From Candidatus Saccharimonadales bacterium (GTDB taxonomy: Bacteria; Patescibacteriota; Microgenomatia; Woykebacterales; RBG-16-39-9b): 59,520 bases of DNA. The stretch spans positions 1-59,520 of the forward strand of contig DATIHF010000071.1 in NCBI GenBank assembly GCA_035480955.1, given 5' to 3'. The notes under the pieces were generated by a model. That model made no database searches, had not been told where the DNA came from, and saw only the letters and a list, made by a program, of their open reading frames with translations. The first letter of the stretch is position 1; each line of letters begins with the position of its first letter. The position numbers and the translations under genes are program-made. Shown piece by piece: positions 20,667 to 44,259 of this stretch.

Positions 20667-20695
20667 GAAACAGTCTCCCTTCAACTATGGGTTTC

Positions 20696-20723
20696 ACTAT
20701 AACTTATTTTTCTGTTTTGTCAA
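20696..20723 (-). promoter_or_regulatory. Candidate promoter, TTGACA-16-TATAGT, for the 79-aa gene
   Basis: Plus-strand tgtcaa at 20718-20723 and actata at 20696-20701. Confidence 0.4.
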
Positions 20724-20728
20724 TTTGG

Positions 20729-20789
20729 AAAATAAAATGACCCCGCTCGTCCGACCAACCCTCAGGGTTGTTGTGTCGGACGAGGCGGG
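20729..20789 (-). terminator. Intrinsic terminator closing cassette B
   Basis: Minus strand reads CCCGCCTCGTCCGAC-(nested CAACCCTGAGGGTTG)-GTCGGACGAGCGGGG followed by TCATTTTATTTT. Confidence 0.6.
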
Positions 20790-20819
20790 ATCAGGGTGCC
20801 GGGCTCCGTCAGGTGCTAC

Positions 20820-20959
20820 TTAACGGTTTGGAGTCCGGCCGGCGCGCACGATGCCATGTTGGCGCCGCGCTCGATGGTTCACCAGGGCGACGCGCCGCCG
20901 TCCGTGATGTTGTCGAAGATACGCTTTGCAATCCAGGGTGTGGTCGCCAAGTATCTCAT
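20820..20959 (-). other. Body of cassette B: either an sRNA or two coupled micro-ORFs (26 aa at 20879..20959; 20 aa at 20820..20882)
   Basis: GGAGG, 4 nt, then ATG at 20959 gives MRYLATTPWIAKRIFDNITDGGASPW*. Its TGA overlaps a GTG (TGGTGA) that opens MNHRARRQHGIVRAGRTPNR*. The segment is very GC-rich with many GC palindromes. Confidence 0.3.
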
Positions 20960-21017
20960 GGGTCCTCCAAGACCTTGTCTTCACTGATCACTCGACCTGT
21001 GAAGTTTTGACCCAAAT

Positions 21018-21046
21018 ATGTTAGCACAAAATGTCAACATTGTCAA
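21018..21046 (-). promoter_or_regulatory. Extended -10 promoter (TTGACA-17-TGC-TAACAT) at the edge of cassette B
   Basis: Minus strand reads cccatagtgTTGACAatgttgacattttgtgcTAACATattt. Confidence 0.55.
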
Positions 21047-21088
21047 CACTATGGGTCTCTGTCTCTCTTTGTGTTAGAATTAGCTCTG

Positions 21089-22098: not shown

Positions 22099-24177
22099 AT
22101 GGACAAAAGCTACGACCGCAAAAAGGTTGAAGAAAAATGGTACTCCTTTTGGGACGAACAGGGCTATTTTAAAGCCGATCCAAACTCTGATAAGCCAAAA
22201 TATTCTCTTTTGATTCCCCCACCCAATCTCACTGGTGAGCTTCATCTCGGCCATGCCATGCAGCACTCAATACTTGATGCTCTCGCCCGCTACAAAAGAA
22301 TGAGCGGTCACGACGTCCTCCTTTTACCCGGGGTCGATCACGCGGGTATTCAATTTGAGGCGGCTTTCGAAAAAAAGTTGTCCAAAGAAGGTCTCTCCAA
22401 ACAAAAACTCGGTCGTGAAGAGTGGCTCAAAAAAGCTTGGGGTTTTAAAGAAGAAGTCTATACTAGTGTTTCCAAAACCTGGCGCTTCCTCGGACTCTCC
22501 GCTGACTGGTCCCGAGAGGTTTTTACCCTCGATGAAGGTCCAAGGAAAGCAGTTTTTGAAGAATTCAAAACTTACTTTGATAAAGATTTGATTTACAAAG
22601 GCCCTTACATCGTGGTCTGGTGTCCCAAAGACCAAACGGCGATCGAAGATGTCGAGGTCGAATACGAAGAGAGAGCGGAAAAGCTCTACTATCTCAAGTA
22701 CGGTCCCCTGACTCTGGCAACGGCTCGGCCCGAAACCAAATTTGGCGACACTGCAGTAGCCGTGCATCCAGACGATAAACGCTTCCAAGAGTATGTTGGT
22801 AAAGAAATCGAGATCGAAACTCTCTCTGGCAAGAAAAAAATGCAAGTCATCGCCGACACTGCAGTTGACCCGAAATTTGGTACCGGAGTGATCAAAGTAA
22901 CTCCAGGACATGACTTTACCGACTACGAGATCGGCCAACGTCACAATTTACCAATCATTCAGGTTATAGACAAGACTGGTCGACTCACAGAGGTTGCGGG
23001 CAAATACGCCGGCATGAAAGTCGCCGAAGCTCGTGAAGCAATGCTGCCGGAGTTGCGGGAAAAAGGCATTTTGGTCAAAGAAGAAGATTACACTCACAAT
23101 GTCGCTGTTTGTGAACGCTGCAAGAGTGTCGTGGAGCCCATTATTTCCGAAGAATGGTTCGTCAAAGTTAGGGAAATGGCCAAAGAAGCTGTTCAACTCA
23201 TTAAAGAAGACGAAATCACTTTTTTACCAAAAAATTACGAGAAAATTTTGGTGGAGTGGCTCGAAAATATTCACGACTGGTGTATCTCTCGCTCTCTCTG
23301 GTGGGGACACCGCATCCCAGTTTGGTATAAAGACAAAGAAATGAAGGTTTCTCAAGATTCTCCTGGTGAGGGTTGGGTTCAGGATGAGCAAGTACTGGAC
23401 ACTTGGTTCTCTTCTGGCCTGTGGCCTTTTTCGACTTTGGGTTGGCCAGAGAAAAGTACTGAGCTTGAAAAATACTTCCCCTGGGATTTTGAGATCAGTG
23501 CTCCGGAGATTAAATATCTCTGGATTGCGCGTATGGTCATGCTCAGCAAATATTTCACTGATCAAGTTCCTTTCAAAACCATGTTTTTCCACGGCATGTT
23601 GCGAGATCTGGAAGGGCGTAAGTTTTCCAAATCTTTGGGCAATGGCATTGATCCCAACTATTTGATTGAAAATTGGGGGGTGGATGCCACCCGCATGGCG
23701 CTCTACTCCTACTCAGTCCCGGGACGAGACGGGAGAGTTTCTAAACAAATTCTCGATGAGCGAGGAAAAAACTTCCGCAATTTCGAAACCAAACTAAGAA
23801 ATATCGCTCACTACGTCATTGAGCTAAAACCAGAAGGATCTAACGAAAAGTTAGATTTTAAAAATGAAGACGACGCGTGGATCAAAAAAGAACTTGAGAC
23901 TACTATTAATAATGTAAGCGCCAATATTGATTCACTTAATCTACATCTGGCGACTGAAGAGATTTACAATTTCGTCTGGCACAAGCTTGCTGATGTTTAT
24001 CTAGAAAAAACTAAAGAGCGTCGAGCGGAGGCGCAACCAATACTAGAATATGTATTAGAGTCTTCTTTAAAACTTCTCCATCCTTTCATGCCTTTTGTCA
24101 CGGAAGAGCTCTGGCAGAGCCTACCTAACAAAAAAGGTGAATCCATCACGATCTCCCTTTGGCCAAAAAACCCTTAA
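22099..24177 (+). CDS. valS: Valyl-tRNA synthetase, short form (692 aa, no C-terminal coiled coil)
   Basis: PPPNLTGELHLGHA (HIGH motif), KFSKSLGN (KMSKS motif), LLHPFMPFVTEELWQ. Confidence 0.9.
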   Translation: MDKSYDRKKVEEKWYSFWDEQGYFKADPNSDKPKYSLLIPPPNLTGELHLGHAMQHSILDALARYKRMSGHDVLLLPGVDHAGIQFEAAFEKKLSKEGLSKQKLGREEWLKKAWGFKEEVYTSVSKTWRFLGLSADWSREVFTLDEGPRKAVFEEFKTYFDKDLIYKGPYIVVWCPKDQTAIEDVEVEYEERAEKLYYLKYGPLTLATARPETKFGDTAVAVHPDDKRFQEYVGKEIEIETLSGKKKMQVIADTAVDPKFGTGVIKVTPGHDFTDYEIGQRHNLPIIQVIDKTGRLTEVAGKYAGMKVAEAREAMLPELREKGILVKEEDYTHNVAVCERCKSVVEPIISEEWFVKVREMAKEAVQLIKEDEITFLPKNYEKILVEWLENIHDWCISRSLWWGHRIPVWYKDKEMKVSQDSPGEGWVQDEQVLDTWFSSGLWPFSTLGWPEKSTELEKYFPWDFEISAPEIKYLWIARMVMLSKYFTDQVPFKTMFFHGMLRDLEGRKFSKSLGNGIDPNYLIENWGVDATRMALYSYSVPGRDGRVSKQILDERGKNFRNFETKLRNIAHYVIELKPEGSNEKLDFKNEDDAWIKKELETTINNVSANIDSLNLHLATEEIYNFVWHKLADVYLEKTKERRAEAQPILEYVLESSLKLLHPFMPFVTEELWQSLPNKKGESITISLWPKNP

Positions 24178-24233
24178 AAACGCAAACGGGACAGATCCGA
24201 GAGTGTTCCGAAGAACAAACCCGAACCTGCCCC
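24178..24233 (-). terminator. Strand-specific terminator closing cassette C
   Basis: Minus-strand RNA: GGGGCAGGUUCGGG pairs with CUCGGAUCUGUCCC as a 14-bp stem with 4 G-U pairs (these become A-C mismatches on the plus strand). Apical GUUC-UUCG-GAAC, followed by GUUUGCGUUUUU. Confidence 0.65.
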
Positions 24234-24246
24234 CTTGCACACTGTG

Positions 24247-24798
24247 TTAGTTGCCCGAACTTCCGTAGCCGTAGTTAATGGACCGCAGGGCCTGGTGGTA
24301 GTCGAACGCCCGATTGCTCCGCCGTCTGAACCGCTGAGTTACCGTGTGCGGCAGAGGGTCGAAGGCTCGGTCGATGTCGGCGTCGAACCCGCGGGTCGAG
24401 GTTTCGAACCAAGATCCGTTGAGCTTACGCTCCACAGCCCATCCCAGCCATAACTCGCTGGCCAGATGGGCAAACACTCCTGGCTTCTCGTCGACGAGCA
24501 TCTGGTTGATGCGCTCGTTGACCACCTTCGGCCAAGAAACCCTACTCAACCGCCGGTTGATCTCGCGGAGGATGGGCCTGCGGACAATGTCCATGCTGAG
24601 CCCCGTCAAACGAGAGAGCCGGTCGGCGCGCTCGCGAGGGCTTGGGTAATATTCGCCCAAGACCTCACGCAATCTGCTGCGTAACCCCTCCTGCTCCTCC
24701 TGGCTGACGAAGTCGTAGTTCGCCCGAATCCAAGGGCGGATACGCCGCTGGAAACGCGTCTCAATCGACTGGTCTTCGGCTTCGTGATCCATGACCAT
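24247..24798 (-). CDS. Hypothetical protein, 183 aa (orphan, Arg/Trp-rich)
   Basis: Track ORF with AAAGGA 7 nt upstream. No family motif recognised. LSRLTGLSMDIVRR could be an HTH (weak). Confidence 0.6.
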   Translation of the reverse strand: MVMDHEAEDQSIETRFQRRIRPWIRANYDFVSQEEQEGLRSRLREVLGEYYPSPRERADRLSRLTGLSMDIVRRPILREINRRLSRVSWPKVVNERINQMLVDEKPGVFAHLASELWLGWAVERKLNGSWFETSTRGFDADIDRAFDPLPHTVTQRFRRRSNRAFDYHQALRSINYGYGSSGN

Positions 24799-24827
24799 TT
24801 TTAATTCCTTTCAGTGTGCATCGGTCA

Positions 24828-24886
24828 TTTAACCTTGATGGTTAAAGATCCGCTTAAGAAAACGAGGTTGCCCTCATTTGCTTAAG
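24828..24886 (-). promoter_or_regulatory. Leader module 1 (HP1 CTTAAG-framed hairpin plus HP2)
   Basis: Minus strand: CTTAAGCAAAT-GAGG-gcaa-CCTC-GTTTTCTTAAG (24853-24886), then TTTAACC-atcaa-GGTTAAA (24828-24846). HP1 starts 88 nt before the ATG at 24798. Confidence 0.5.
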
Positions 24887-24938
24887 ATTAGGTGACGCAA
24901 CTGGTTGTTGCGGCACCCGGGGCGCTGTCGGTGAAAGA

Positions 24939-25061
24939 CTACGCCCTCTTTGGCAGTTTGATGATGATTTCAGTACGCTTGCTTCGCTTCCGAAACGCGT
25001 CCCAGAGTGTTGCGTCTTGGAAGTTAAGGACGTAGCGCTCGAGATTCACCCATTCGGGCAT
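24939..25061 (-). CDS. Candidate micro-protein, 40 aa (MPEWVNLERYVLNFQDATLWDAFRKRSKRTEIIIKLPKRA)
   Basis: AGGAGG with an 8-nt spacer, then ATG, beginning 20 nt after the hydrolase stop. Below the track cutoff. Confidence 0.35.
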   Translation of the reverse strand: MPEWVNLERYVLNFQDATLWDAFRKRSKRTEIIIKLPKRA

Positions 25062-25080
25062 CTGCCTTACCTCCTTTCTG

Positions 25081-25794
25081 TCAGTTCAACAACGACTCGA
25101 TGATGCTCGCTGCTCTTTCCGGCTCTAGGATGATCCAATCATGACCTGCATTGCGAACGATTACCGGATCCTGCCGAAGCGCTCTCCGCATCTCCCAGCA
25201 GTTTGGGAAATACTCATCGTCGTCCGACCAAACCAAGTCTATTGGAACCTCGACTAGTTTGATCTGCCTGACCACGTCACTCTGAGTCGTGATCTGAAAC
25301 GCTTCCCACATCCAGAACGGATGAAGCAAGCTGTTGCGGACGAAACTCAGCACGATCTGAAGCGCTTTCACTTTGTTGCGGCCGAAATTACGCCGGTTCT
25401 TTCTTAGGGCCGCACCTAACCAACCGATGAGGCTGCGATTCACTTTCTCCCCAGCGATAGAGTTGGCAACTATTTTGCCAAACCTCTCCGGAAAAACTAC
25501 GACCCAGCGCAAAGCGACCAAACCACCCATCGAATGGGCGACGATGTCAACTCTGCCCCAACCATACTTTTCCGCGAGCTCTTCCAGTGCGCTCACGATC
25601 TGCCATCCATCGCCCAAACCATTGAGGTCCGGGATGACAACGAGGTGACTCTTCGCGAGCTCCTCTCCCAGATCCTCGTACAGGCTCGGACTCATTCCTA
25701 GGCCATGCAAAAGGACCACAGTGCTATCGTGTTCAGTCCCCGCGAGGAGATAGTGAACACGAGTACTGCCGACCAGATCACTGCAGTGCTTCAC
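25081..25794 (-). CDS. Alpha/beta-fold hydrolase, 237 aa
   Basis: LLHGLG (oxyanion hole), AHSMGG (nucleophile elbow), WSDDDEY, AGHDW. The GTG at 25794 is preceded by AAGGAGG with a 6-nt spacer. The track ATG at 25905 has no RBS and would read through leader module 2. Confidence 0.8.
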   Translation of the reverse strand: MKHCSDLVGSTRVHYLLAGTEHDSTVVLLHGLGMSPSLYEDLGEELAKSHLVVIPDLNGLGDGWQIVSALEELAEKYGWGRVDIVAHSMGGLVALRWVVVFPERFGKIVANSIAGEKVNRSLIGWLGAALRKNRRNFGRNKVKALQIVLSFVRNSLLHPFWMWEAFQITTQSDVVRQIKLVEVPIDLVWSDDDEYFPNCWEMRRALRQDPVIVRNAGHDWIILEPERAASIIESLLN

Positions 25795-25819
25795 GCTCTC
25801 CCTCCTTAGGGATACAAAA

Positions 25820-25875
25820 GCTCGATTCTCGAGCCTCCGCTTAAGAAAACCAACAGTAAAGTTGATTTGCTTAAG
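25820..25875 (-). promoter_or_regulatory. Leader module 2 (HP1 plus HP2)
   Basis: Minus strand: CTTAAGCAAAT-CAAC-tttact-GTTG-GTTTTCTTAAG (25840-25875), then GCTCGA-gaa-TCGAGC (25820-25834). HP1 starts 81 nt before the GTG at 25794. Confidence 0.5.
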
Positions 25876-26126
25876 GGGAATGTTCTTCTGGGAAGAACTC
25901 AGCATGCAGATTGCATACCTAAAAGCCCCTTCTTCTCTATTGTGGGATACCTCTGAAATCTGGCTGATTCCCTAGGTGCCTATGGATCATGCGTAAAGTT
26001 GGCTCCCAACAACCAACAATCACTCCCCATAGGTCTCAGGCTTTTTTTCGTTGTCCTGCCAACGACTTTGCTTTTACCCCAGCAGTATTTTCTGGGAACT
26101 AACCGGATGTTAGCTTTTGCCTGAAG

Positions 26127-26687
26127 CTAGAACAGACCGCGCAGTTTTTGCTCTGCGGCTGCACGCACGAGATCCCTCAGAGATTCCCATTCATCTGAGT
26201 CTGATATCATGCTTTGAAGTACGTCGACGGCCATGAAACGTACCCTTGTTTCGGCCGACTCATCTTCAGCAACAGCCTTGAGGGCTGCTTGATCCGACTT
26301 GATCTTCTCGATCGCCAGCCCATCGGCCAACGCGCTCTGGGCCGCTTCGCTAGCATAATCCAACGCGTTTTGGGAAACCTTTTCGAGTGCTTCCCTGGCG
26401 TGCGGGATCTCGACATGCTCGGATAATTCGTCCGCGGCCATCTCGCGAAGATCCGTGGGACGGTTGGGATCGAGTAGAACCTCGATCGCTCCTTCCATTG
26501 TGCGGATAGGCTCGAGGTACTTCCTCAACTTTTCGCCGTCCAGGTCACGGTTCATGCATTGCATGCAACCCATGACATGTTTGTCAACCTCCTGCAAGTC
26601 CTCTGGCAGGGTGTCGTCTGGTCCCAAAGCAGCTAGTTCCCTTTCATGGAAGAGCCGCCTCAGCACCTCTGCGTTTGGGTGTTCCAT
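26127..26687 (-). CDS. Cytoplasmic protein with an N-terminal ZAS-type (H-x3-C-x2-C) zinc motif and a HEAT-like helical C-terminus
   Basis: H14...H37-VMG-C41-MQ-C44. The C-terminal helical repeats (e.g. ETRVRFMAVDVLQ) resemble HEAT/PBS-lyase repeats. RBS AAGGAG. No TM segment. Confidence 0.55.
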   Translation of the reverse strand: MEHPNAEVLRRLFHERELAALGPDDTLPEDLQEVDKHVMGCMQCMNRDLDGEKLRKYLEPIRTMEGAIEVLLDPNRPTDLREMAADELSEHVEIPHAREALEKVSQNALDYASEAAQSALADGLAIEKIKSDQAALKAVAEDESAETRVRFMAVDVLQSMISDSDEWESLRDLVRAAAEQKLRGLF

Positions 26688-26838
26688 TGAACTACTCCTT
26701 TATTGCAGCGAAAGCATCAGAGGAGGCTTTCAATCTCCTGTATCGAACCAAATAGCCTGCGAGAGTGGTTTTCTTGTTAGAAAACTCTCCGCTTTGGGTG
26801 GCTAGAAAATCCCGCTCAATTAGACTAGAGCTTGTCAC

Positions 26839-26872
26839 AAAACCAAACGACCTTATTCGGGACGTTTGGTTT
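26839..26872 (-). terminator. Internal hairpin/terminator overlapping the stop of the 56-aa gene
   Basis: Minus strand reads AAACCAAACG-tcccgaataaggt-CGTTTGGTTT followed by TGTG (weak U-tract). Confidence 0.45.
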
Positions 26873-27041
26873 AGAGTTGTGGCTGCTGTGCTTTTTCTAG
26901 GTTGTAGAATACAATCCCCAACCCGTAAAAAAAGCCAGCCAAGGCCGTAGCCATGATCGCAAGCGTCACGGTACCCGTGAACACCGCTACCGCTGCCACA
27001 ACCGCAGCCACCAAGGCCGCGACGAAGTATAAGGTTATCAC
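26871..27041 (-). CDS. Small hydrophobic protein, 56 aa, 2 predicted TM
   Basis: The GTG at 27041 is preceded by AAGGAGG with a 5-nt spacer. Sequence VITLYFVAALVAAVVAAVAVFTG...LAGFFYGLGIVFYNLEKAQQPQL. The track start at 27161 would run through leader module 3. Confidence 0.5.
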   Translation of the reverse strand: MITLYFVAALVAAVVAAVAVFTGTVTLAIMATALAGFFYGLGIVFYNLEKAQQPQL

Positions 27042-27063
27042 CCTAACCTCCTTTACTAAGAGT

Positions 27064-27119
27064 CCAGATTCATTTGATCCGGCCTCTCTTAAATCAACCT
27101 CTAGTGAGACTGGCTTAAG
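27064..27119 (-). promoter_or_regulatory. Leader module 3 (HP1 plus HP2)
   Basis: Minus strand: CTTAAGCCAGTCTCA-ctaga-GGTTGATTTAAG (27088-27119), then CCGGAT-CAAATGA-ATCTGG (27064-27082). HP1 starts 78 nt before the GTG at 27041. Confidence 0.5.
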
Positions 27120-27192
27120 GATTCCCGAGGGGTTGGTTGTTACTCTTTCAGTGCGTTGCACCTACTCGAACACCCTCGGGTTTCCATCAGAA

Positions 27193-27438
27193 TTAGCTCC
27201 AGATCAGCGGGATCCGAAGCTTGGGGTTCGCCAGCTTGAGGTAGACCGCGTGGTCTCCCCGAATAGCTGTCGCCTTGACGATGAAGCCTGTGCCGCTTCC
27301 TTCCTCGTAAGCAGCTGACTTCACCTGGCCGATGTTGACGTGAACTCCACTCTTCGTCAGCACGGTCAGCTCTTCTCCCAACGACGGACGCTGCGCGATG
27401 GTTCCACCGTCGATGATGACCGGCAAAACCGTGACCAT
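27193..27438 (-). CDS. Hypothetical protein, 81 aa
   Basis: The ATG at 27438 is preceded by AGGAGG with a 4-nt spacer. Sequence MVTVLPVIIDGGTIAQRPSLGEE.... The track start at 27468 lacks an RBS. Confidence 0.55.
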   Translation of the reverse strand: MVTVLPVIIDGGTIAQRPSLGEELTVLTKSGVHVNIGQVKSAAYEEGSGTGFIVKATAIRGDHAVYLKLANPKLRIPLIWS

Positions 27439-27459
27439 GGGACCTCCTGATGGATAAGC

Positions 27460-27518
27460 CACAAACAATTTAGCTTGTGCGCTCCCTTAAATCAGCCTCA
27501 GATTGAGACTGGCTTAAG
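27460..27518 (-). promoter_or_regulatory. Leader module 4 (HP1 plus HP2)
   Basis: Minus strand: CTTAAGCCAGTCTCA-atctga-GGCTGATTTAAG (27486-27518), then CACAAGC-taaatt-GTTTGTG (27460-27479). HP1 starts 80 nt before the ATG at 27438. Confidence 0.5.
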
Positions 27519-27587
27519 GAAATTAGTTACTTTGCTAGGCAAAGAACTCGGCTTAGTTTTCCAGGCTAAGCTTGAAGAAAAGTGAAG

Positions 27588-27989
27588 TCAGTAACCCCAG
27601 GCCTTGAAGTCTCCGAAGAGCTTCAGCGCGTTGAGCAGAATCTCCTCGATCGTCAGCTTGGCGTATTCCTCGGCGGGCGTCGACGGTACAAGAGCCTCGT
27701 TGATCTGAAGTGCTTCCCCGATCCGCTCTCTTTGCGTCTCACAGAGGTCAATCATGAGGTCCACATCGTAGGGGTAGCCTTCGTTACCCTTCCTGAAGTG
27801 GTAGGTGACCGCTTCAGTAAGACGGAATCGGAAGTATACCTCTGCCACGAACATGAACGAATCGACCGGCACCTGCCACATGAACTGCTCGCCTAGCGCG
27901 TGGACCAGTTTGGCCCATTCTATCTCCCCAGACTCAGCTTGGCGTACCAAGTTTCGTGCCTGGACAATCCTATCGACTTCCTTTGACAT
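27588..27989 (-). CDS. Hypothetical protein, 133 aa
   Basis: The ATG at 27989 is preceded by AAGGAG with a 6-nt spacer (track start 28007). No motif recognised. Confidence 0.6.
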   Translation of the reverse strand: MSKEVDRIVQARNLVRQAESGEIEWAKLVHALGEQFMWQVPVDSFMFVAEVYFRFRLTEAVTYHFRKGNEGYPYDVDLMIDLCETQRERIGEALQINEALVPSTPAEEYAKLTIEEILLNALKLFGDFKAWGY

Positions 27990-28010
27990 TTCACACTCCT
28001 TGAGCATAGT

Positions 28011-28069
28011 TCGAGCTCATTTGGCTCAAACTCCAAAGTACTAAAAAAGCACCTGGTAACTGGCTTCAA
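28011..28069 (-). promoter_or_regulatory. Leader module 5 (degenerate HP1 plus HP2)
   Basis: Minus strand: TTGAAGCCAGTTACCAGGT (28051-28069) resembles CTTAAGCCAGTCTCA. HP2 is TTGAGC-CAAATGA-GCTCGA (28011-29), with the same loop as module 3 on a different stem. It starts 80 nt before the ATG at 27989. Confidence 0.35.
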
Positions 28070-28211
28070 ATGTATATTCTTCAGGGCAATGACTTGCAAT
28101 GACAGTTCTTTATACTTCAAACCCAGTTACTAGATGCCTTGATCTAGATAACTTGATCGCTGTGGCAGCTTCAAAAGTCAGCTGGCGATCTATTTAATTG
28201 TTAATGACAAA

Positions 28212-28240
28212 AGTATAGCACACTATCGGCCATTTGTCAA
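28212..28240 (-). promoter_or_regulatory. Extended -10 promoter (TTGACA-17-TGC-TATACT) at the edge of cassette C
   Basis: Minus strand reads gtacTTGACAaatggccgatagtgtgcTATACTttt. The -35 and -10 flanks are identical to the cassette A promoter. Confidence 0.6.
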
Positions 28241-28293
28241 GTACCACGCTACGCATAACTTAAGTATGGGAGGGTGAGGTTATGGGCCCACCC

Positions 28294-28533
28294 TCAACTG
28301 ATCTCTTCCAAAGTGTTGTCGCGACCACAGTTCGGGCACTTGGTACCACTTCGAATATTAGTCGGTTTGTGGCAAGTTCGGCATCGGTACTTATACTTCT
28401 CGGTTCCTTCTGGCCTCGGAATAGGCTTGCCAGATTCCAGCAACTTATCCAGTTCCTTCTTTCTCTCTTTACGGTCAGGCGTCCATTCGTCGAACTTATC
28501 AGGCACGCTCGAGCCTCCTTTACCCCGTACCAT
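28294..28533 (-). CDS. Small basic zinc-ribbon protein, 79 aa
   Basis: CRTC...CPNC. Followed by hairpin GAGGGTG/CACCCTC (28270-28295). Confidence 0.5.
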   Translation of the reverse strand: MVRGKGGSSVPDKFDEWTPDRKERKKELDKLLESGKPIPRPEGTEKYKYRCRTCHKPTNIRSGTKCPNCGRDNTLEEIS

Positions 28534-36622: not shown

Positions 36623-37726
36623 ATGTTTCTAGAAAAGCTGCAACTCCTAAACTTTCGAAACCTCGCCAACCAAAAACTAGAATTCAAAAATTCCATTAAT
36701 GTAATCTATGGGGACAACGCCCAAGGAAAAACTAATCTGATCGAAGCAATTTACCTTCTTTCTGGGAGCCGCTCAATGAGAGCTAAAACAGACCACGAAC
36801 TAATTGCTTGGGGCAAAGAGAAAGCAAAAATCTCTGGTAAAGCTGACTTTTTGGATCTTGAACTCACTGTCTTCCCAAATCAGAAGAAACTCTTGATCAA
36901 TAAACAAGAAAAAAGACTAACTGATCTGATCGGTACCTTTCTAACCGTACTTTTCACGCCCGCTGAGGTTGAGATTGCTTCTGGATCGCCGGACCGGCGA
37001 CGCCGCTTTTTGGATCAGTTTGCCGCCAATCTTTCGCGAGAGTACTTAGTCTCTTTGGGCAAGTATCAAAAAGTTCTCCGCGCGCGCAATGGCCTCCTCT
37101 GGCAAATTAAAAACGGACGAGCGCATGACCTGAGCGTTTGGGATGAACAGTTGGCTACTCTTGCGGTTGAGATTTGGAAAAAAAGAGTCTCGTTAATTGA
37201 AGAGCTCAATACCGAGATAAAAACCGTGAGCCGAAAACTCCTCAGTGGGGATCTCAAGCTCTTTTACGAGCCGCCAATTGCAGTTGGTTCTACTAAAAAT
37301 ATGAGAGAGGAGTTTTTAAGACTGCTTCAAAAGAGCTCTTCTGAAGAAATAAGGAAAGCGCTCACCCAAATTGGTCCGCAAAGGGACGACTTTAAAATTA
37401 TTTTGGATTTAGAAAAAAACGACAAAATTGTTTCTAAAGACTTAGGGATCTACGGGTCACGCGGGGAGCAGCGCTCTGCGGTGATTTGCCTTAAGCTCGC
37501 GGAAATTGAGCTGCTCACCGCTGCGAAAGAAACTAGACCAACGCTTTTGCTCGACGAAGTGTTAGGCGAGCTAGATCCCAAACATCAGCAACTCTTAGTG
37601 CGCCAGATTCGTAAAGGTCAGGCTTTTTTAACTAGTGCCAACTACACTGAATTAAAAAAAATATTAGGAACCGGCTATAAAAGTTTTGAAGTGAAAGACG
37701 GAGCAATTACCCCGGTGGCTGACTAG
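36623..37726 (+). CDS. recF: DNA replication/repair protein RecF
   Basis: GDNAQGKTNLIEA (Walker A), LLLDEV (Walker B), SGGEQ-like RGEQRS. Confidence 0.9.
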   Translation: MFLEKLQLLNFRNLANQKLEFKNSINVIYGDNAQGKTNLIEAIYLLSGSRSMRAKTDHELIAWGKEKAKISGKADFLDLELTVFPNQKKLLINKQEKRLTDLIGTFLTVLFTPAEVEIASGSPDRRRRFLDQFAANLSREYLVSLGKYQKVLRARNGLLWQIKNGRAHDLSVWDEQLATLAVEIWKKRVSLIEELNTEIKTVSRKLLSGDLKLFYEPPIAVGSTKNMREEFLRLLQKSSSEEIRKALTQIGPQRDDFKIILDLEKNDKIVSKDLGIYGSRGEQRSAVICLKLAEIELLTAAKETRPTLLLDEVLGELDPKHQQLLVRQIRKGQAFLTSANYTELKKILGTGYKSFEVKDGAITPVAD

Positions 37727-39593
37727 GGGGCTGGCCCTCCGGTGGGTTCTGTGGTTCAGGGTTTTGTACCGGTTCGGGTGGTTCTTGTTGTGGTTGCTGC
37801 TGTTGCTGGGAGTTTAGCTCAGCTGGATTAGAGGTGATCAGCACATGTTCATGAGGGGCGGCCTGAACTCTGATTGCCACGTGGTTGCTGCCGGCAAAGA
37901 AAAGCCCCTCCCCAATATCCGCCGCTAACAGGAGATTTCTTTCCCCTTCCGACAAATAAAAAGTATCAACAATCTGATCCACACTGGCCGAGGACTGCTT
38001 GAGCAGAATTTGGATAGAGGAATTGGTCACGATCGCTTTACCGTAATCAGATACCAGGAAATCCTCTACGTCTTGGGTTACGGTAGTTAAACCCAGATAA
38101 TATTTCCGCGCCCTTTTTGCAATTGAGTAAACAAAAGAAGCACTGTCAGGGTGTTTCATCATATACCAAGCCTCGTCGATGATCAGAAGCCTTTTCTTGC
38201 GGTCCTTTTTAATTTTGGTCCAGATGTAATCAAGAATGATAAACATCCCGATTGGTCGTAGCTCATCTTCCAAATCACGAATAGAAAAAACTGTGAAAGT
38301 GTTTTTAATATCAATGCTTGAGGACTGATCAAAGATTCCCGCTAGTGAGCCTTTAATAAACTTCTCAATTCTCTCAGCCATGGTTCGAGCTTCTGGCTCT
38401 GCGCTGTTGAGCAAGACTTCGTAAAGATCTTCGAGCACTGGAGCAGGACGGTTTTGGGTCGCCGCGTCCGGAGTGATGCCCTTGAGTTTATAAGTGGTGA
38501 TGAGTGCGCGATCGAGTATCGCGTCTTCAGTGGCAGTTAAGTTGCCCAGAATAATTCTGAAGAGAGAGTGTAGGGAAAGAATTTTCAAGCCCAACTCGTT
38601 TTCCCCTTCAGTGTAGACACCAGAGAGATCAAAAGGGTTGATCTTGGAGCTCTCCTGACCAGAGAATTTAATGTACTCTCCTCCGATTGCGTCACAAAGA
38701 GTCTTATACTCATCTTCTGGGTCAATAATAATTATTTCTGTGCCAAGCATCAGAGAGCGCAAGGCTTCCAATTTGGTCATGTAACTTTTTCCCGCCCCGC
38801 TTTTTGCAAAAATCACACTGTTAGCGTTTTCTAGGCTGAAACGATCAAAGATGACGAGGGAGCCGTTGTGCTCGTTAATTCCGTAGAGAATCCCTTCATT
38901 GGCAGTCAGCTCTGAAGAAGTAAAAGGAAAAGTAGTTGCCAGAGAAGTGGTGTCCATGTTGCGGGTGACCAAAAGCTTATCGGTGAAAGTTGGCAGAGTC
39001 GTCTGAAAACCCATTTCCTGCTGCAGAGTAGCGTGTTTGGAGATGATCAAGAGAGAGCCAAGAGTCGACTCAATCTGTTTAGTGATAGCGTTGAGCTCTT
39101 CCAGACTTTCGGCGGGGATGGTGATATAGAAAGAAAATTGGAAAAACCTTTCGATTCCGGCGACGAGCTGCTCTTGCAAAGACTGCGCGTCCTCGAGAGC
39201 GATTCGTACGGCTGGGTCGATCACCCGCCCTTTTTCAAAGTCACCTTGAACAGTTGCCTCCATCTCGGCAATCTTCCGGCGCAAATCATCCAAAATACCC
39301 TTGGCCTCTACGGGGTAATAGTAAAAAGAAATCTCTAAGGTGTGGTCAAAGTTGATGATCGGGGCGAGCCAGTTGGCACCAACAAAACGGGGGTAGCCAC
39401 TAATAAACAAAGTCCGGTAGTAAGTCTCACCAACTCTGATGTGATCAAAATCTACCTGCAAAGCAGGGGGAGCGATAATGTCTTTTACATCAAACATTCC
39501 TCGCCCAAGAGTATTTTTAACTTTTTCACGAGTTTGGGCCAGCTCAAGATCTTCTTTAGTAGGCTGCTTTTTCTTGCCGCCGAACAAGGCCAT
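37707..39593 (-). CDS. VirB4/TrsE-family T4SS ATPase (C-terminal two-thirds)
   Basis: FAKSGAGKSY (Walker A), RLLIIDEAW (Walker B), YYRTLFISGYP block, Gln/Pro-rich tail. ATG at 39593 in a TGATG overlap with the upstream ORF (track TTG at 39596). Confidence 0.8.
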   Translation of the reverse strand: MALFGGKKKQPTKEDLELAQTREKVKNTLGRGMFDVKDIIAPPALQVDFDHIRVGETYYRTLFISGYPRFVGANWLAPIINFDHTLEISFYYYPVEAKGILDDLRRKIAEMEATVQGDFEKGRVIDPAVRIALEDAQSLQEQLVAGIERFFQFSFYITIPAESLEELNAITKQIESTLGSLLIISKHATLQQEMGFQTTLPTFTDKLLVTRNMDTTSLATTFPFTSSELTANEGILYGINEHNGSLVIFDRFSLENANSVIFAKSGAGKSYMTKLEALRSLMLGTEIIIIDPEDEYKTLCDAIGGEYIKFSGQESSKINPFDLSGVYTEGENELGLKILSLHSLFRIILGNLTATEDAILDRALITTYKLKGITPDAATQNRPAPVLEDLYEVLLNSAEPEARTMAERIEKFIKGSLAGIFDQSSSIDIKNTFTVFSIRDLEDELRPIGMFIILDYIWTKIKKDRKKRLLIIDEAWYMMKHPDSASFVYSIAKRARKYYLGLTTVTQDVEDFLVSDYGKAIVTNSSIQILLKQSSASVDQIVDTFYLSEGERNLLLAADIGEGLFFAGSNHVAIRVQAAPHEHVLITSNPAELNSQQQQQPQQEPPEPVQNPEPQNPPEGQPPSQPPG

Positions 39594-40321
39594 CAACTAC
39601 CTTGCCTTTCTTCCTGAGGAGGTGGGGTGCTATTGCCCGTTGAGGGCTGAAGTGCTGGCTCAACTATTGGAGTAGTGTACTCGGTCGTGTTGAGAGCCGC
39701 CTTCTGCTCCAAGGAAACATCAGGGTTGTAGAGATCGTAGAAAAACTCAACTAGCTCTTCAGTGGACAGCAAGTGGGCTTTAACACCTATCCTGGAGACT
39801 TGTTTGGTGAGGTGATCGACCTTTGGTCCTAGATTGGTCTTGGCTTTTTCAAGAATATGCCATTTGTCCTCGACGGGACCTTTTTTCACAAACAAACTTG
39901 GAATCGTTAAGGCCTGCTGCAGAGTCGTCCCTGCAAAAGGAATAACAATATAGAAGCGCTTGTCCAAAATTTGGTTTTGTGAGACAAGCTGTTGGATAAA
40001 ACCAGCGTATAAGCTGATTTGACGAGCAATCTGTTGGTTGGGTGTTTTTTGTTGCGCTTCGGCGAGCCGGCCTAAATAGTTGGAAATATCCATTTTTTTA
40101 GAACGTACCAAAACCTGGATTGGATAGGTCAGAGAGTTGAGCAGAGCCGCGTAAGCAAAAATCATCGCGTCTTGCTCTCTTTCCGAAAGCAGATCAAAGT
40201 TCACTGCTGAAGTTTGTAAGATGGCGATCGCATTACCGTTTTTTAGAATTACAATATTATCGCGGATATCTTCAACGTCTAGGTGTTGTTGGGTTGAGGG
40301 TAGTGGTTTTTTGGCAGCCAT
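39593..40321 (-). CDS. T4SS-associated protein resembling the N-terminal segment of Gram-positive VirB4 homologues
   Basis: The block ILQTSAVNFDLLSEREQDAMIFAYAALLNSLTYPIQVLV resembles, from memory, the 'inf.L.s..eq..i...y..fLN' block at the N-terminus of Tn916 Orf16-type VirB4 proteins. Confidence 0.45.
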   Translation of the reverse strand: MAAKKPLPSTQQHLDVEDIRDNIVILKNGNAIAILQTSAVNFDLLSEREQDAMIFAYAALLNSLTYPIQVLVRSKKMDISNYLGRLAEAQQKTPNQQIARQISLYAGFIQQLVSQNQILDKRFYIVIPFAGTTLQQALTIPSLFVKKGPVEDKWHILEKAKTNLGPKVDHLTKQVSRIGVKAHLLSTEELVEFFYDLYNPDVSLEQKAALNTTEYTTPIVEPALQPSTGNSTPPPQEERQGS

Positions 40322-40340
40322 TTTTGTTTGGAAAGCTCTC

Positions 40341-43052
40341 CTAGCGAGCCTTAATTTCGACCGGAGGCATAATGGCTCCGGTAACGTCGATCTCTATAAT
40401 ATCAAAATCGTAACCGTCTTTCTCAAGCTCTAATGTGTAAACTCCGTCAGGAACCGGCGTCGAGAGAGCAAATTGCCCAATCTTGTTAGTCTTGAAGGCC
40501 CTCACTGGGTTACCGTCGTTGTCCTTAACAATTATAACTACGGTGTCTAAGAGCAGACCTCGATTGTCTTTAACGATACCATTAATCACATTAGGGATTT
40601 TGGGAGTATTGGGAAGCATTTTTCCGTAAGCTGGTTGAGCTTTGACCACTGGTCGAGAACGCTCCTCAAGTTTTTTTGCCTCCCTCTCCCTCTCTAAAGC
40701 TTTAATCTCCGCGATTATTCTAGCTTTTTCCTCTGGTGTTTTCTGAACCTTTTCTTGTTGTTTTAATACTTCAACCTGAGGATTGACCACACCAGTAGCA
40801 ATAGGTTGTGGTTGTGCTGGAGGTGAGGTTGGAGCGGCTGTTGCAGGTGGTTTCTCACCAAGTCTAGAAAGCATTGATTGAAGCTCTAAGTTGACTTTGC
40901 GGCGGCTGGCAGTAGCCTCAATTTCATTATACTGGCGGGAAATACTGGTTTGCTGCTCCAGATTTTGAAGTTTTTGCATCATGGCGCTTCGTTCCTCACC
41001 CGAGAGTTGATCAAGTTCTTTGTTACCCACCGTGGTTAACGAGGATTTCAGCTGGGTCATTTTGGTTTTGAGAGATTCGTCCGTGACATCAGCTTCCGCT
41101 GGTTCTTTCTGCTCTACCTTTTGCTCTGCCGCCTCAGCTTGCTCCTTGGCTTTCTTTGCGGCTTCCTCTTTAGCCTTAATCACTGATTCTTTGACCGCCT
41201 CTTCTCGGGCCGCTGTCTCGAGGATTTGTCTCTCGATATCATTTTGACCACTAACCGTTGCCGCAGTCGCTACCGTTGGGAGATTTTCCTTTGGCTTGGC
41301 AGTTGTCGAAACCGGAATCGCGGTAATATTTAAAGCTGCTTCTGGGTTACCGGGTAAGACCTTAGGTTGTCCAACCACAATATTAGCGGGAACCTCTTTA
41401 GTCACACCCTTTTCTATCCCCTGATTAGAAGAAGTCAAATTCACACTCGCAGAAGCAGAACCTTGTTTGGCCAGTGCTTCCGAGACTAGTTTTTCAATCA
41501 TTCCTGAGTCTATCTCAGAAGTCTTTTTGTCTACTTCCAACCGAGCCTTTTCTTTGGCAACTTCCGCTTCGACGATTTTTTTGACTGCTTCTTGATCTAG
41601 AGATTGAGGCTGGGCTTTGAGGGCCTCGTTGGCAGCTTGTTTCAATTGCTCAGGATTTGGAGGCAAGGTTTTTTCTTTAATAACTTCCGTTTTCTCAACC
41701 ACCGGAGCAGGATTGGTCACCGACGTGTTCCAGGTCGGGCCAGCGCTTGAAGTAGCCGCAGTAGAGCTTACTTGTGGTTGAGTTTGTGTTGGAGCTGTGG
41801 TTGCTGTCGGAAGCGGTTGAGAGATAGGTAGCTTTGGTTCTGCTGGTTTGGCAATCTCGGCTGGTTTGGGAGCAGCCTCAAACTTAATTTCCAGCTCTTT
41901 GGGTTTGTGATGAAGTTTTTCGTGGCGGGCCCGGTGGCCTTCCAAACCTTCCACCTTATCCCCTAACCAATCAGTTTTCTGTTTCAAGTATTTCAAAGCA
42001 ATTGTGTGGCTGTTGACTAGATCAGTTAGCGAGCCCCTCCAGGTTTGAACCGCCTCCATGACTTTCTGATCGTAGTCAAGCTGTTCTGAGAGAGCCGTTA
42101 GGGATTTCTGATTTCGCTCCTTCTCCAGCTGCAGAAAAGTTTGGTCCAGGTGAGAAACCTCTTTAGTCAAAGTTTCGATTTCTTGCTCTAATTTAGTGAT
42201 ATGGCTGGCAAACTCTTCTTTGGGTGGCTCTTTTGGTGCTTCCTTAACTTTTTGTACCACAACAGGCTCAGGTATCACTGTTTTAGGCACGCTAGCCACC
42301 TCTGGTCTCACCTCCACAGGCTTGGGTGTCTGGGCTTGGGGCAGTGCGGCTGGGCTCACTTGGGGGAGCGGGGCTGGCCTCACTGGAGCTAGTACAGGTT
42401 GGATCATTGGTTGAACAACTGGGGCAACAGGCTGCGGAGGTGTTTGAAGCTGAACCTGTGGCAACGGGACCTTCTTGATGCCGCCAGGAGCTTTGGCAGG
42501 CTCGGCAGGGAGGTTTTTCTGCTTAGTGATCTCGGAAGCGATTTTCTGCTTTAGTTGTGAAAAAAGTTCTTGATTGATCTGTTCGATTTGCTTGCGAAGC
42601 TCCTCTGAACGATACTTTGCTTGTTCAGGAGTAAGCTGGACTACTTCTGGTTTTTTGATGGCTGGTTGAGTTTGGGGAGCTCTTTTTGTCTCCGTCAGGC
42701 TCTGTACTTGCGGAGTAGTGGGAGAGTTTACTTTCGTGCGTATTTGTTCGTGAAGGCTGCTACCGAGTTGAATGACCCTTTCACCTCGGATTGAAATCTG
42801 ACCATTTTGACCCAAAGCAGAAGTAGAGACCGCGCGGTTTTGAGTGTTTTTGACAGGACGAACGTAAAGGTTGGAGCCTCCGGAGGCTAGAGTTGCCGCG
42901 GGTTTGAAGCTGACTTCTGAGGCCAAAGTAGCTTGGGAGGAAGCTTTGTGCAACACTGAGCGTGGTTTTTCCGCTGGCAAGTATCGGCTGCTCTCTGGTG
43001 CTTGGTTAACCTTGCTTCTTAAAGTTGCATTAACCCCAGTCTGTGAATTCAT
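40341..43052 (-). CDS. Large Pro/Gln/Lys-rich coiled-coil protein (903 aa) with a C-terminal CarboxypepD_reg-like beta-sandwich
   Basis: Long low-complexity PxP and EK-rich stretches. C-terminus GIVKDNRGLLLDTVVIIVKDNDGNPV...GVYTLELEKDGYDF. Confidence 0.55.
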   Translation of the reverse strand: MNSQTGVNATLRSKVNQAPESSRYLPAEKPRSVLHKASSQATLASEVSFKPAATLASGGSNLYVRPVKNTQNRAVSTSALGQNGQISIRGERVIQLGSSLHEQIRTKVNSPTTPQVQSLTETKRAPQTQPAIKKPEVVQLTPEQAKYRSEELRKQIEQINQELFSQLKQKIASEITKQKNLPAEPAKAPGGIKKVPLPQVQLQTPPQPVAPVVQPMIQPVLAPVRPAPLPQVSPAALPQAQTPKPVEVRPEVASVPKTVIPEPVVVQKVKEAPKEPPKEEFASHITKLEQEIETLTKEVSHLDQTFLQLEKERNQKSLTALSEQLDYDQKVMEAVQTWRGSLTDLVNSHTIALKYLKQKTDWLGDKVEGLEGHRARHEKLHHKPKELEIKFEAAPKPAEIAKPAEPKLPISQPLPTATTAPTQTQPQVSSTAATSSAGPTWNTSVTNPAPVVEKTEVIKEKTLPPNPEQLKQAANEALKAQPQSLDQEAVKKIVEAEVAKEKARLEVDKKTSEIDSGMIEKLVSEALAKQGSASASVNLTSSNQGIEKGVTKEVPANIVVGQPKVLPGNPEAALNITAIPVSTTAKPKENLPTVATAATVSGQNDIERQILETAAREEAVKESVIKAKEEAAKKAKEQAEAAEQKVEQKEPAEADVTDESLKTKMTQLKSSLTTVGNKELDQLSGEERSAMMQKLQNLEQQTSISRQYNEIEATASRRKVNLELQSMLSRLGEKPPATAAPTSPPAQPQPIATGVVNPQVEVLKQQEKVQKTPEEKARIIAEIKALEREREAKKLEERSRPVVKAQPAYGKMLPNTPKIPNVINGIVKDNRGLLLDTVVIIVKDNDGNPVRAFKTNKIGQFALSTPVPDGVYTLELEKDGYDFDIIEIDVTGAIMPPVEIKAR

Positions 43053-43669
43053 CCGCTACCCTCCCCGGCGGAACGGTTTTTCGCACTATCGACGACCTCG
43101 GCCATTCTCTGGAAACCTACAGTAGCAGGATTAAACTCTCCTTCTTTAGGTTGTAGGCTTGGAGCGGCAAAAACCTGGCTTTCGCTAGTGGCTGAGTTGA
43201 GGTTGAGGTTAGTCAGACGCCTTTCCTCGTTGATATCAAGAATACTTTTGGAAGCACCCTTGCGGTGGGTCTGCAAATAAAGCTTCAACTTACTGGGATC
43301 AGAGTAAATTTTGGGTTCCACGGCTGTCGCTTGGCGGTGCAGGTAAATCGAGAATTGAGGCTCCAAAAAGCCAATCTCTTTAGGCTCGTGGTGCCACACC
43401 CGTGTGTTCGGAGAGTAAACCGTCTTGAAAAAAGCCGCAATCCAGCGTTCAAAAGGCATATTGTTAAAACTAACAAAAGCTAAAGCGATCGCAAAGAGTC
43501 CTACTGGACCACCCACGAGCAAAACAATAGGAAAAGGTAATTTTGAAGAATAAAGAATAAAAATAAAGATCGCGGCGGCGGCTAAGTAGCCAAATTGCCG
43601 AAGGGTCAAGAAACCAATTAATTTGAACTCAAATCCAGTAATATTTTGTGGAACAGGATGGCTTTGCAT
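43049..43669 (-). CDS. PrgI/VirB3-like two-TM T4SS protein
   Basis: MQSHPVPQNITGFEFKLIGFLTLRQFGYL followed by 2 TM. Internal ATG at 43669 preferred. 4-nt overlap with the next gene. Confidence 0.5.
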   Translation of the reverse strand: MQSHPVPQNITGFEFKLIGFLTLRQFGYLAAAAIFIFILYSSKLPFPIVLLVGGPVGLFAIALAFVSFNNMPFERWIAAFFKTVYSPNTRVWHHEPKEIGFLEPQFSIYLHRQATAVEPKIYSDPSKLKLYLQTHRKGASKSILDINEERRLTNLNLNSATSESQVFAAPSLQPKEGEFNPATVGFQRMAEVVDSAKNRSAGEGSG

Positions 43670-43799
43670 AGATAGACTTTTTGGCTTTCTTTTGTGTGCA
43701 CTAATTATGCCTAAACTGTAGCTAAAAAACAACCCGTAACAAAGTGGATCAATTACCCTCTGATAAACCACTCACTGAAAGTAAATGATAGTTATAGGG

Positions 43800-43987: not shown

Positions 43988-44259
43988 GTGAGTAAAAGGT
44001 ACTTTTACAAGTTAATAGCTTGTTTTGAAAGGAAAGAAACTCCTTGAGTCTCGTCTTGGGGTATTTGGGTTGAAGAAAATTCAGCCTAGCTACCCCTTGA
44101 TGAGATTGCATATTGCATTTCATCTGAGGGGTTAATCGTGCAACCATCTCCCGTGCGCTCGCTTTGCGTGCTGCTGGGAAGGTGTTTTACGGTAACCGTT
44201 TCGGGTGGTGCAAATGCACCTTAAGTCTGACGACTTTGGATCGTCAAGGAGGATCAGTT

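Follow-up and report, generated by a model that had tools for sequence, protein, structure and literature searches.

The DNA stretch analyzed here (the window) comprises nucleotides 1–59,520 of contig DATIHF010000071.1 (assembly GCA_035480955.1). Between valS and rplY it includes a block of seven genes, spanning positions 24178–28240 of the minus strand, which we consider, with somewhat better than even confidence, to be a horizontally exchanged accessory operon that is gated by an attenuator and that draws its genes from a shuffling pool of cassettes. The block apparently belongs to a family of mosaic arrays, hitherto undescribed, in which genes are swapped between relatives and which have in common two conserved RNA hairpin elements, here termed U1 (in the leader) and H1 (between cistrons). 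An initial annotation, made from the sequence alone, had described the block as a self-contained transcription unit, and the promoter, the terminator, the foreign composition and the foreign translation signals reported below agree with that description.

Composition, insertion and mosaicism of the block

The compositionally distinct block starts right after the valS stop codon (nucleotide 24177) and extends to about nucleotide 28250. The overall GC content of the window is 45.9%; in 300-nt sliding windows, the flanking genes show values of 39–48% and the region 24150–28050 values of 46–61%. A distinct block following the valS stop codon had been pointed out initially and does exist, but the jump given at that time, from 30–37 to 65% GC, was exaggerated. 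The seven open reading frames (ORFs) of the block, g1 to g7, have a GC content of 0.52–0.60 and a GC content at third codon positions (GC3) of 0.62–0.77, compared with about 45% GC and a GC3 of 0.447 ± 0.034 (range 0.39–0.54, 28 genes) in the backbone. Relative synonymous codon usage (RSCU) of the block correlates with that of the backbone with r = −0.13, while the control, one half of the backbone against the other, gave 0.95. In codon usage the contrast is strong. As its intergenic regions have only 39–48% GC (55% in the terminator segment), the GC excess sits in the coding sequence. A Shine-Dalgarno duplex can be formed at all seven block starts (−8.4 to −16 kcal/mol), whereas most backbone starts, including those of valS, rplY and dnaA, score about 0 to −6 kcal/mol; these energies agree with the earlier claim that every start in the block has a strong ribosome-binding site (RBS), unusual for the backbone. 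Several backbone genes present a TATAAT-like box 6–12 nt before the ATG (for instance at 22099, 29293, 10654 and 49887) which, together with the missing Shine-Dalgarno sites, suggests that leaderless or Shine-Dalgarno-independent initiation may be widespread in the backbone, unlike in the block.

Both joins of the block were recovered independently. A second assembly, GCA_964508465.1, contains the sequence at 99.97% identity and has the same joins. Logan contigs, each from a single run, span the right boundary in SRR9179559, SRR9179560, SRR9179561 and SRR9179563, and one contig from SRR9179563 spans the left boundary.

On sequence grounds, the host can be assigned to the relatives of Candidatus Curtissbacteria, in the Microgenomates of the candidate phyla radiation (CPR); its valS is 72–78% identical to valS of Curtissbacteria metagenome-assembled genomes. 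In about 17 Curtissbacteria genomes tsaD-valS and rplY are convergent and 0.2–1.1 kb apart, and none of the block proteins is encoded in those valS/rplY loci. The corresponding gap in the window is 4.4 kb. As valS and rplY are so close together in these relatives, the block has been inserted.

Other relatives carry different arrays at the same site (the loci fetched for comparison are designated by L numbers). In L312, whose tsaD, NYN and L25 proteins are 78–80% identical to those of the window, the rplY/valS site includes a Cys-rich 94-aa ORF, U1, H1, a g1 homologue (46% identity), a 118-aa ORF, H1, an 82-aa ORF and H1, the g1 homologue being placed directly behind U1. In L275/L194 the site contains U1, a 75-aa ORF, H1, a Cys-rich 102-aa ORF and a receiver-domain protein, and in a more distant genome (L098) a GC-rich array with a hydrolase gene is located at the 3′ end of valS. 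At unrelated chromosomal sites of other CPR genomes, each with locally raised GC, a hydrolase gene is accompanied by H1 in L092, L095 and L097, and also by U1 in L097. An all-against-all BLAST comparison showed that the families linking the arrays are the hydrolase, g1, g2, the Cys-rich protein, and 82/91-aa and 83/85-aa proteins, and that arrays are linked through single common cassettes, not through conserved sets. Hence conservation of the whole gene set as a neighborhood, which had been considered initially, was not seen; only individual cassettes recur. The 3′ untranslated region with H1 and the hairpin that precedes it, H0, travels with the upstream ORF, both for g2 (window versus L314) and for the 82/91-aa ORF (L312 versus L200). 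This implies that the exchange unit would consist of the RBS, the ORF and the hairpins H0-H1-H2.

Several observations concern the surroundings of these arrays. The valS gene of L312 (9560–11653) is only 46% identical to that of the window (22099–24177) despite flanking proteins that are 78–80% identical; valS itself seems to have been swapped between lineages beside the hot spot. A patch of 57% GC at 20690–21070, between an 85-aa ORF and tsaD, contains no convincing gene and no Rfam match; the equivalent position of L098 is likewise GC-rich and holds two orphan ORFs. A cluster of orphan genes located upstream in L095 and the matches in L198 and L240 were discarded, since they have no array features.

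The U1 leader and the H1 hairpin modules

The promoter predicted initially at 28212–28240 was borne out by its match to the consensus (Table 1), and an equivalent promoter lies ahead of U1 in L275 and L312. U1 is conserved at 93% identity in L200, 89.7% in L312 and 83% in L275; for comparison, backbone DNA of L312 reaches only 65–73% identity to that of the window. Its consensus fold includes 37 pairs, 3 of them compensated. By means of nhmmer, U1 was also located at the head of the L097 array, at the contig end of L098 and upstream of the g2 homologue of L314 (contig end); it gave no match in the relatives that lack the island. Both U1 (37-pair stem, U6) and the hairpin 24182–24238 at the opposite end of the block combine the stem-loop and the U-tract of an intrinsic terminator. 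The latter had been described as specific to the minus strand and as containing G-U pairs, and both points are sustained: the minus strand folds at −36.3 kcal/mol (z = −6.4), the plus strand at only −17.7 kcal/mol, the T-run is present 3′ on the minus strand only, and the count of pairs is now 24, 5 of them G-U.

In folds made without the 3′ arm of U1, its 5′ arm finds a partner further upstream in four out of four leaders (window, L312, L275 and L200), although these upstream segments differ in sequence. The four leaders thus share the property that defines an attenuator, mutually exclusive pairing of the terminator 5′ arm conserved among homologues, and the combination of a U1 terminator with an alternative upstream pairing predicts that the array is gated by attenuation. 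Attenuators and riboswitch platforms likewise place a terminator close to the promoter and oppose to it a conserved alternative pairing of the 5′ arm. Unlike them, U1 has no recognizable aptamer, leader peptide, tRNA site or known protein-binding motif and no Rfam match (E ≤ 5), and one and the same leader precedes arrays whose first genes are unrelated. Its conservation pattern has no coding periodicity, and a search of Rfam 15 at the gathering threshold and at E ≤ 5 yielded nothing relevant.

Just upstream of the promoter and U1, three arrays encode a small Cys-rich or zinc-ribbon protein (window, 28294–28533; L312, 7370–7654; L200, 348–614), belonging to two different families. Such proteins could act as regulators of U1. 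The one in the window gives only sub-threshold zinc-ribbon matches, has a GC3 of 0.54 and varies among relatives, L275 being devoid of it. We also observed that Logan contigs of several runs all stop at 28043–28078 (inside U1), at 25759 and at 25078 (the ends of the hydrolase gene g5), which suggests that the community holds several contexts or variants with U1 and hydrolase sequences; breaks inside U1 are expected for a sequence common to several contexts.

H1 consists of a 6-bp base (CTTAAG with YTTAAG), a 1 × 1 mismatch and a variable upper stem of 7–8 bp, and is present in four intergenic regions of the block. The initial annotation had noted a structured spacer, but not the conserved and covarying RNA elements U1 and H1. 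A pattern search located 4 copies in the window, all of them on the minus strand inside the block, against a chance expectation of 0.3. A covariance model recovered these four copies and nothing else in the window, with 42–47 bits in sense and 18–23 bits in antisense orientation (46.6 and 19.6 for the copy of module 1). The same model gave no match in 80 control valS loci (1.3 Mb), and it located ten extra copies outside the training set, in array loci only, with 12–14 of the 14 positions paired. When 1.6 Mb of fetched loci were scanned by a script, CTYAAG hairpins were present only in loci of the hydrolase family, always on the gene strand; every locus of that family carries H1 except L098, which gave no match. 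In an alignment of 18 copies, 95% of the cells are paired and both-sided changes affect 9 of the 14 pairs, with none of 500 shuffles being as good, figures that are somewhat inflated by the way in which part of the copies was selected (see below). Covariation reaches the base of the stem (CTCAAG with CTTGAG), and one U-G pair is conserved. The type II form of H1 occurs also upstream of the hydrolase homologue in L100, L101, L097, L102 and L092.

H1 is part of a larger module. The variable hairpin H0 precedes it, and in 23 of 25 modules a third hairpin, H2, starts within 0–2 nt of the end of H1; where a module closes an array, its H2 is clearly a terminator. In L092, near-identical 45-nt terminators of the H2 type (7705–7750 and 9195–9240) form direct repeats around a hydrolase and two-transmembrane (two-TM) peptide module, and a tRNA gene, judged by eye, stands immediately beside the second repeat. 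Avoidance of the AflII site (CTTAAG) as the origin of H1 was considered but abandoned: the window contains this hexamer as often as expected, though half of its copies are in the block.

Strand asymmetry, sense orientation, the neighboring terminators and the ribosome-binding sites all speak for an action of H1 and U1 at the RNA level. In the mechanism that we propose, the near-consensus promoter would drive a leader of about 65 nt that runs into U1, which would be the default transcription stop; the leader segment able to pair with the U1 5′ arm would be the antiterminator, and some signal or factor would set the switch. Upon read-through, seven ORFs with strong Shine-Dalgarno sites, separated by four H0-H1-H2 modules and closed by a strong terminator, would be transcribed. 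On the mRNA, H1-H2 may serve as processing or stability sites and as insulation, or partial termination, between cistrons. The evolutionary unit would be a single cassette (RBS, ORF and 3′ H0-H1-H2) from a pool shared among Microgenomates, and cassettes would be exchanged by recombination at U1/H1 and at the flanking housekeeping genes, following DNA uptake. The products include a putative cytoplasmic alpha/beta hydrolase of the serine esterase type, a two-TM peptide and small orphan proteins, for which our guess is a role in niche adaptation or host interaction.

Several points weigh against this proposal. U1 and g1 are common to three related genomes at the same site, so part of the array may be vertical and fast-evolving. 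The block has no mobility gene, which makes the exchange route conjectural. Termination at U1, read-through and RNA processing are predictions, and no factor able to bind H1 or to flip U1 was identified. Of the four modules of the window, three have an H2 without a clear U-tract. The H1 copies taken from a metagenome scan, among the matches listed, had been preselected for perfect hairpins, so that the pairing statistics are inflated. Last, only g5 matches a curated family, PHROGs, PADLOC and NCBIfam being blank for six of the seven products.

Table 1. Features of the block and of its right margin, in the direction of transcription.
Feature	Coordinates	Strand	Details
79-aa CxxC...CxxC zinc-ribbon ORF, possibly associated	28294..28533	-	between rplY and promoter
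Sigma-70-type promoter, extended -10 TG	28212..28240	-	TTGACA-17-TATACT, 11/12 consensus positions
Leader, ~65 nt, with potential antiterminator segment ~28143-28160	28142..28205	-	predicted to pair with U1 5′ arm
U1, 105-nt long hairpin, 37 pairs, then T6	28036..28141	-	intrinsic-terminator-like leader element
g1, 133 aa	27588..27989	-	all-alpha orphan family ending WGY
Module 1	27456..27548	-	H0 27525-27548, H1 type I 27485-27519, H2 27456-27484
g2, 81 aa	27193..27438	-	small beta protein, orphan family
Module 2	27059..27180	-	H0 27124-27180, H1 type I 27088-27119 (45.4 bits), H2 27059-27087
g3, 56-aa two-TM peptide, GTG start	26871..27041	-	followed by hairpin ~26834-26870
g4, 186-aa acidic protein	26127..26687	-	H-x3-C-x2-C (HVMGCMQC)
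332-nt spacer, 3′ part = module 3	25795..26126	-	H0 25882-25898, H1 type II 25840-25875 (45.2 bits), H2 25819-25835; fold z = -4.2
g5, alpha/beta hydrolase, 237 aa, GTG start at 25794	25081..25794	-	intact Ser88-Asp193-His218 triad
g6, 40-aa basic micro-ORF	24939..25061	-	RBS -16 kcal/mol; gene in public annotation
Module 4	24822..24918	-	H0 24890-24918, H1 type II 24853-24886 (42 bits), H2 24822-24852; fold z = -5.6
g7, 183-aa Arg-rich protein	24247..24798	-	C-terminal domain GFDxxxDRAFDPLP...RAFDY
Array terminator	24178..24238	-	hairpin 24182-24238, 24 pairs (5 G-U), then UUUGCGUUUUU

Alternative explanations and comparison with known systems

Integrons combine an IntI tyrosine recombinase and an attI site with the adjacent cassette array, and clusters of attC sites lacking an integrase (CALINs) are also known; attC sites measure 57–141 bp, have R″/R′ cores RYYYAAC/GTTRRRY and expose extrahelical bases on the bottom strand. 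We assign a small probability to the block being a DNA cassette system of this kind, in which H1 would be a folded single-strand, attC-like site, U1 with the promoter would be an attI/Pc-like platform and the recombinase would be encoded elsewhere. Like integron arrays and CALINs (for instance the Vibrio superintegron with its VCR repeats), the block consists of orphan ORFs of odd composition in one orientation behind a common head promoter, each ORF–hairpin unit recalling an ORF–attC cassette. H1 is, like attC, an imperfect hairpin with an internal mismatch, its stem being conserved at the base and variable above; relatives have, at one and the same site, arrays that differ in individual cassettes, and assembly graphs break inside U1. 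Against this, no IntI is encoded in the block, and no tyrosine recombinase was found within about 10 kb on either side (no integrase or tyrosine recombinase in precomputed Pfam tables for 14247–39293), nor in the gene tables of L092–L106, L312 and L313. H1 measures 32–40 nt, half the attC size or less, and has cores CTYAAG/YTTRAG instead of the integron ones, the comparison being one of length and core sequence. Its G-U pairs, one of them conserved, favor the coding strand and so point to RNA, the hairpins to which H1 is coupled prove to be true terminators where arrays end, every ORF carries a strong RBS of its own, and the head of the block is an attenuator-like leader, not attI. A related possibility, to which we likewise give only a small probability, is that U1 and H1 represent a new mode of cassette capture, specific to the CPR/Microgenomates and parallel in function to integrons, that works without a recombinase in cis, H1 providing the exchange points and U1 being both the entry point and an RNA switch that would keep genes silent until a signal arrives.

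That the locus is native, vertically inherited and hypervariable, its high GC3 and divergence being due to a recombination hot spot (GC-biased gene conversion), we regard as improbable. Such an origin would be in keeping with U1 being followed by g1 at the same site in the window and L312, with g1 having only 46% identity to its L312 homologue while backbone proteins reach 78–80%, and with the adjoining valS, which also looks exchanged. It is contradicted by the other Curtissbacteria genomes (about 17), which have nothing at the site, and by the presence of the same elements and of the hydrolase family at unrelated sites in other CPR classes, with raised GC whatever the GC of the host. A native origin is also at odds with a Shine-Dalgarno use different from that of the backbone, and a native hot spot with intergenic parts that are not GC-enriched.

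The initial annotation had suggested an accessory system for defense, toxin/immunity or host interaction, given the membrane peptide, the hydrolase and a regulator-like protein. A defense, toxin/immunity or host-attack system in which these three act together we likewise hold to be improbable. The block does encode accessory, variable, island-borne small proteins, among them a two-TM peptide and a hydrolase with an intact triad; according to a survey of Patescibacteria (PMC12455944), genomic islands are common in this group and one transfer of an alpha/beta-hydrolase lysophospholipase is reported. The suggestion found no support in PADLOC, as none of its models matches any product (two sub-significant hits, E > 0.02, about 10 bits). 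Since single cassettes recur and the set as a whole does not, a machine made of several components is disfavored. In addition, g5 has, by eye, no obvious N-terminal signal peptide.

Descent from a prophage, a plasmid or another mobile element, the block being a moron-like module, is in our judgment quite improbable. Phage morons and the early, RNase III-punctuated mRNAs of T7 do resemble the block in being autonomous promoter-genes-terminator units of odd composition and, in T7, in having conserved stem-loops with internal mismatches between cistrons; in addition, other ORFs of the window share the codon usage of the block, and one of them (44164–47736) adjoins type-IV-secretion-like genes. 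However, the block is not in a phage context. It contains no integrase, att repeats, structural or replication genes, and the earlier remark that integrase, transposase and phage hallmarks are missing was extended by library scans of the block proteins, which revealed no such family. PHROGs gave only a generic esterase match, blastn of the whole block no match in INPHARED (phage) or PLSDB (plasmid), and IMG/VR viral contigs no H1, U1 or hydrolase relatives. In those contigs, the U1 pattern and the hydrolase profile had no match. Two of three scans with the H1 pattern did give matches (85 in all), which were treated as chance; one hairpin (L107) is antisense inside a 1643-aa ORF, and a single perfect hairpin (L157) among 81 loose matches is consistent with chance. 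An assembly chimera or a binning contaminant, which the abrupt change of composition at both ends could evoke, is highly improbable given the identical joins in GCA_964508465.1, the run-level contigs that cross both boundaries and the analogous arrays at the same site in relatives.

REP/BIME (repetitive extragenic palindromic sequences/bacterial interspersed mosaic elements), ERIC (enterobacterial repetitive intergenic consensus) and Correia-type repeats can stabilize mRNA and break assemblies, and they resemble U1 and H1 in being imperfect palindromes of short length and conserved sequence that lie in transcribed intergenic DNA. Unlike REP sequences and miniature inverted-repeat transposable elements, which are dispersed through a genome in many copies, in both orientations and irrespective of particular genes, U1 and H1 are confined to arrays and are found in the sense orientation only (covariance model and nhmmer, window and fetched loci). 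Neither is present in the 55 kb of window backbone or in 1.3 Mb of loci taken from relatives and from other bacteria.

CPR bacteria are host-dependent organisms with tiny genomes, and the acquisition and regulation of accessory genes in them are poorly understood. The block seems to be one case of a recurring design, a conserved switch-like leader and conserved hairpin punctuation around interchangeable orphan genes, which is shared by several CPR lineages and found at a hot spot beside valS. Were this to hold, two new families of structured RNA motifs with good covariation would have been identified, and their covariance models would provide a handle on the accessory gene pool of Microgenomates in metagenomes. 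A small hydrolase family of CPR context and several orphan families would be tied to one mobile gene pool, and whether this pool is shuffled in an integron-like manner or by plain recombination becomes testable. The survey mentioned above reports hundreds of genomic islands in Patescibacteria, most transfers occurring between Patescibacteria (PMC12455944). The block is like those islands in being horizontally acquired by a streamlined CPR genome; unlike in that survey, a term search of which gave no mention of hairpins or integrons, it is U1 and H1 that define the present family.

Gene products and other regions of the window

The gene order given initially (133, 81, 56 with two TM segments and 186 aa, the spacer, the hydrolase, 40 and 183 aa) was confirmed, the start of the hydrolase gene being corrected. 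The start of g5 at the GTG at 25794 is backed by homologues and by the public annotation; the longest ORF, of 274 aa, does not mark the start. As judged by Pfam, g5 belongs to Abhydrolase_6 (E = 3e-16, 61 bits, cut-off 26.3), and all 12 family members examined retain HSMGG, D193 and H218 without change. Its close relatives amount to about 12 clusters with 39–50% identity, out of 5.8 billion, and wherever their contigs reach the flanks the context is of CPR type.

The products g1, g2, g6 and g7 were analyzed by an exhaustive HMMER search, run with a concatenated query. About 11 homologues were found for g1 (30–47% identity) and five for g2 (43–49%); the C-terminal domain of g7 has two distant relatives, and g6 gave no homologue in this one search. 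Insect cuticle repeat proteins (P0030, P0044) that also came up were discarded, since their matches are spurious and due to repeats. The alignment of the g1 family is too variable for locus searching. AlphaFold2 models g1 as a six-helix bundle (predicted local distance difference test, pLDDT, of 86), with no significant Foldseek match in the PDB (best E = 0.18), and g2 as a small beta protein (pLDDT 75), with no match in the same comparison. The g2 homologue of L314 is framed in the same way, by U1 and H0-H1-H2, and has a homologous 3′ untranslated region. No match to Pfam, PADLOC or the PDB was obtained for g7. As for g3, no curated family matched it (Pfam, PHROGs, PADLOC, NCBIfam), this gene being left out of both homology searches; the array of L092 encodes a two-TM peptide of 74 aa.

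Zinc-associated anti-sigma (ZAS) factors of the zf-HC2 family combine an H-x3-C-x2-C motif in the anti-sigma domain with an adjacent gene for an extracytoplasmic function sigma factor. The 186-aa product g4 had been labeled ZAS/HEAT-like and regarded as a zinc-finger regulator. The label derives from the motif only: no zf-HC2, other zinc-finger or HEAT model of Pfam matches g4 at E ≤ 1, and the one match bearing on HEAT/ARM repeats is the best Pfam hit, Fes1 (E = 0.003), below the cut-off. The regulator assignment found no support either, since g4 has no homologue except itself in 5.8 billion protein clusters and no sequence match in the PDB, and the array contains no partner sigma factor gene.

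Outside the block, cassette-like codon usage is also exhibited by the ORFs 44164–47736 (plus strand) and 1518–1946 (minus strand), with no U1 or H1 near them. The former encodes 1190 aa without a Pfam match, and has a GC3 of 0.63 and an RSCU correlation of r = 0.74 with the block and 0.21 with the backbone. It adjoins PrgI/VirB4/TraG-like genes, and a type-IV-secretion-like set (PrgI family, a large VirB4-like protein and a TraG/VirD4-like ATPase) is located at 37707–43771, beside dnaA-dnaN-recF.

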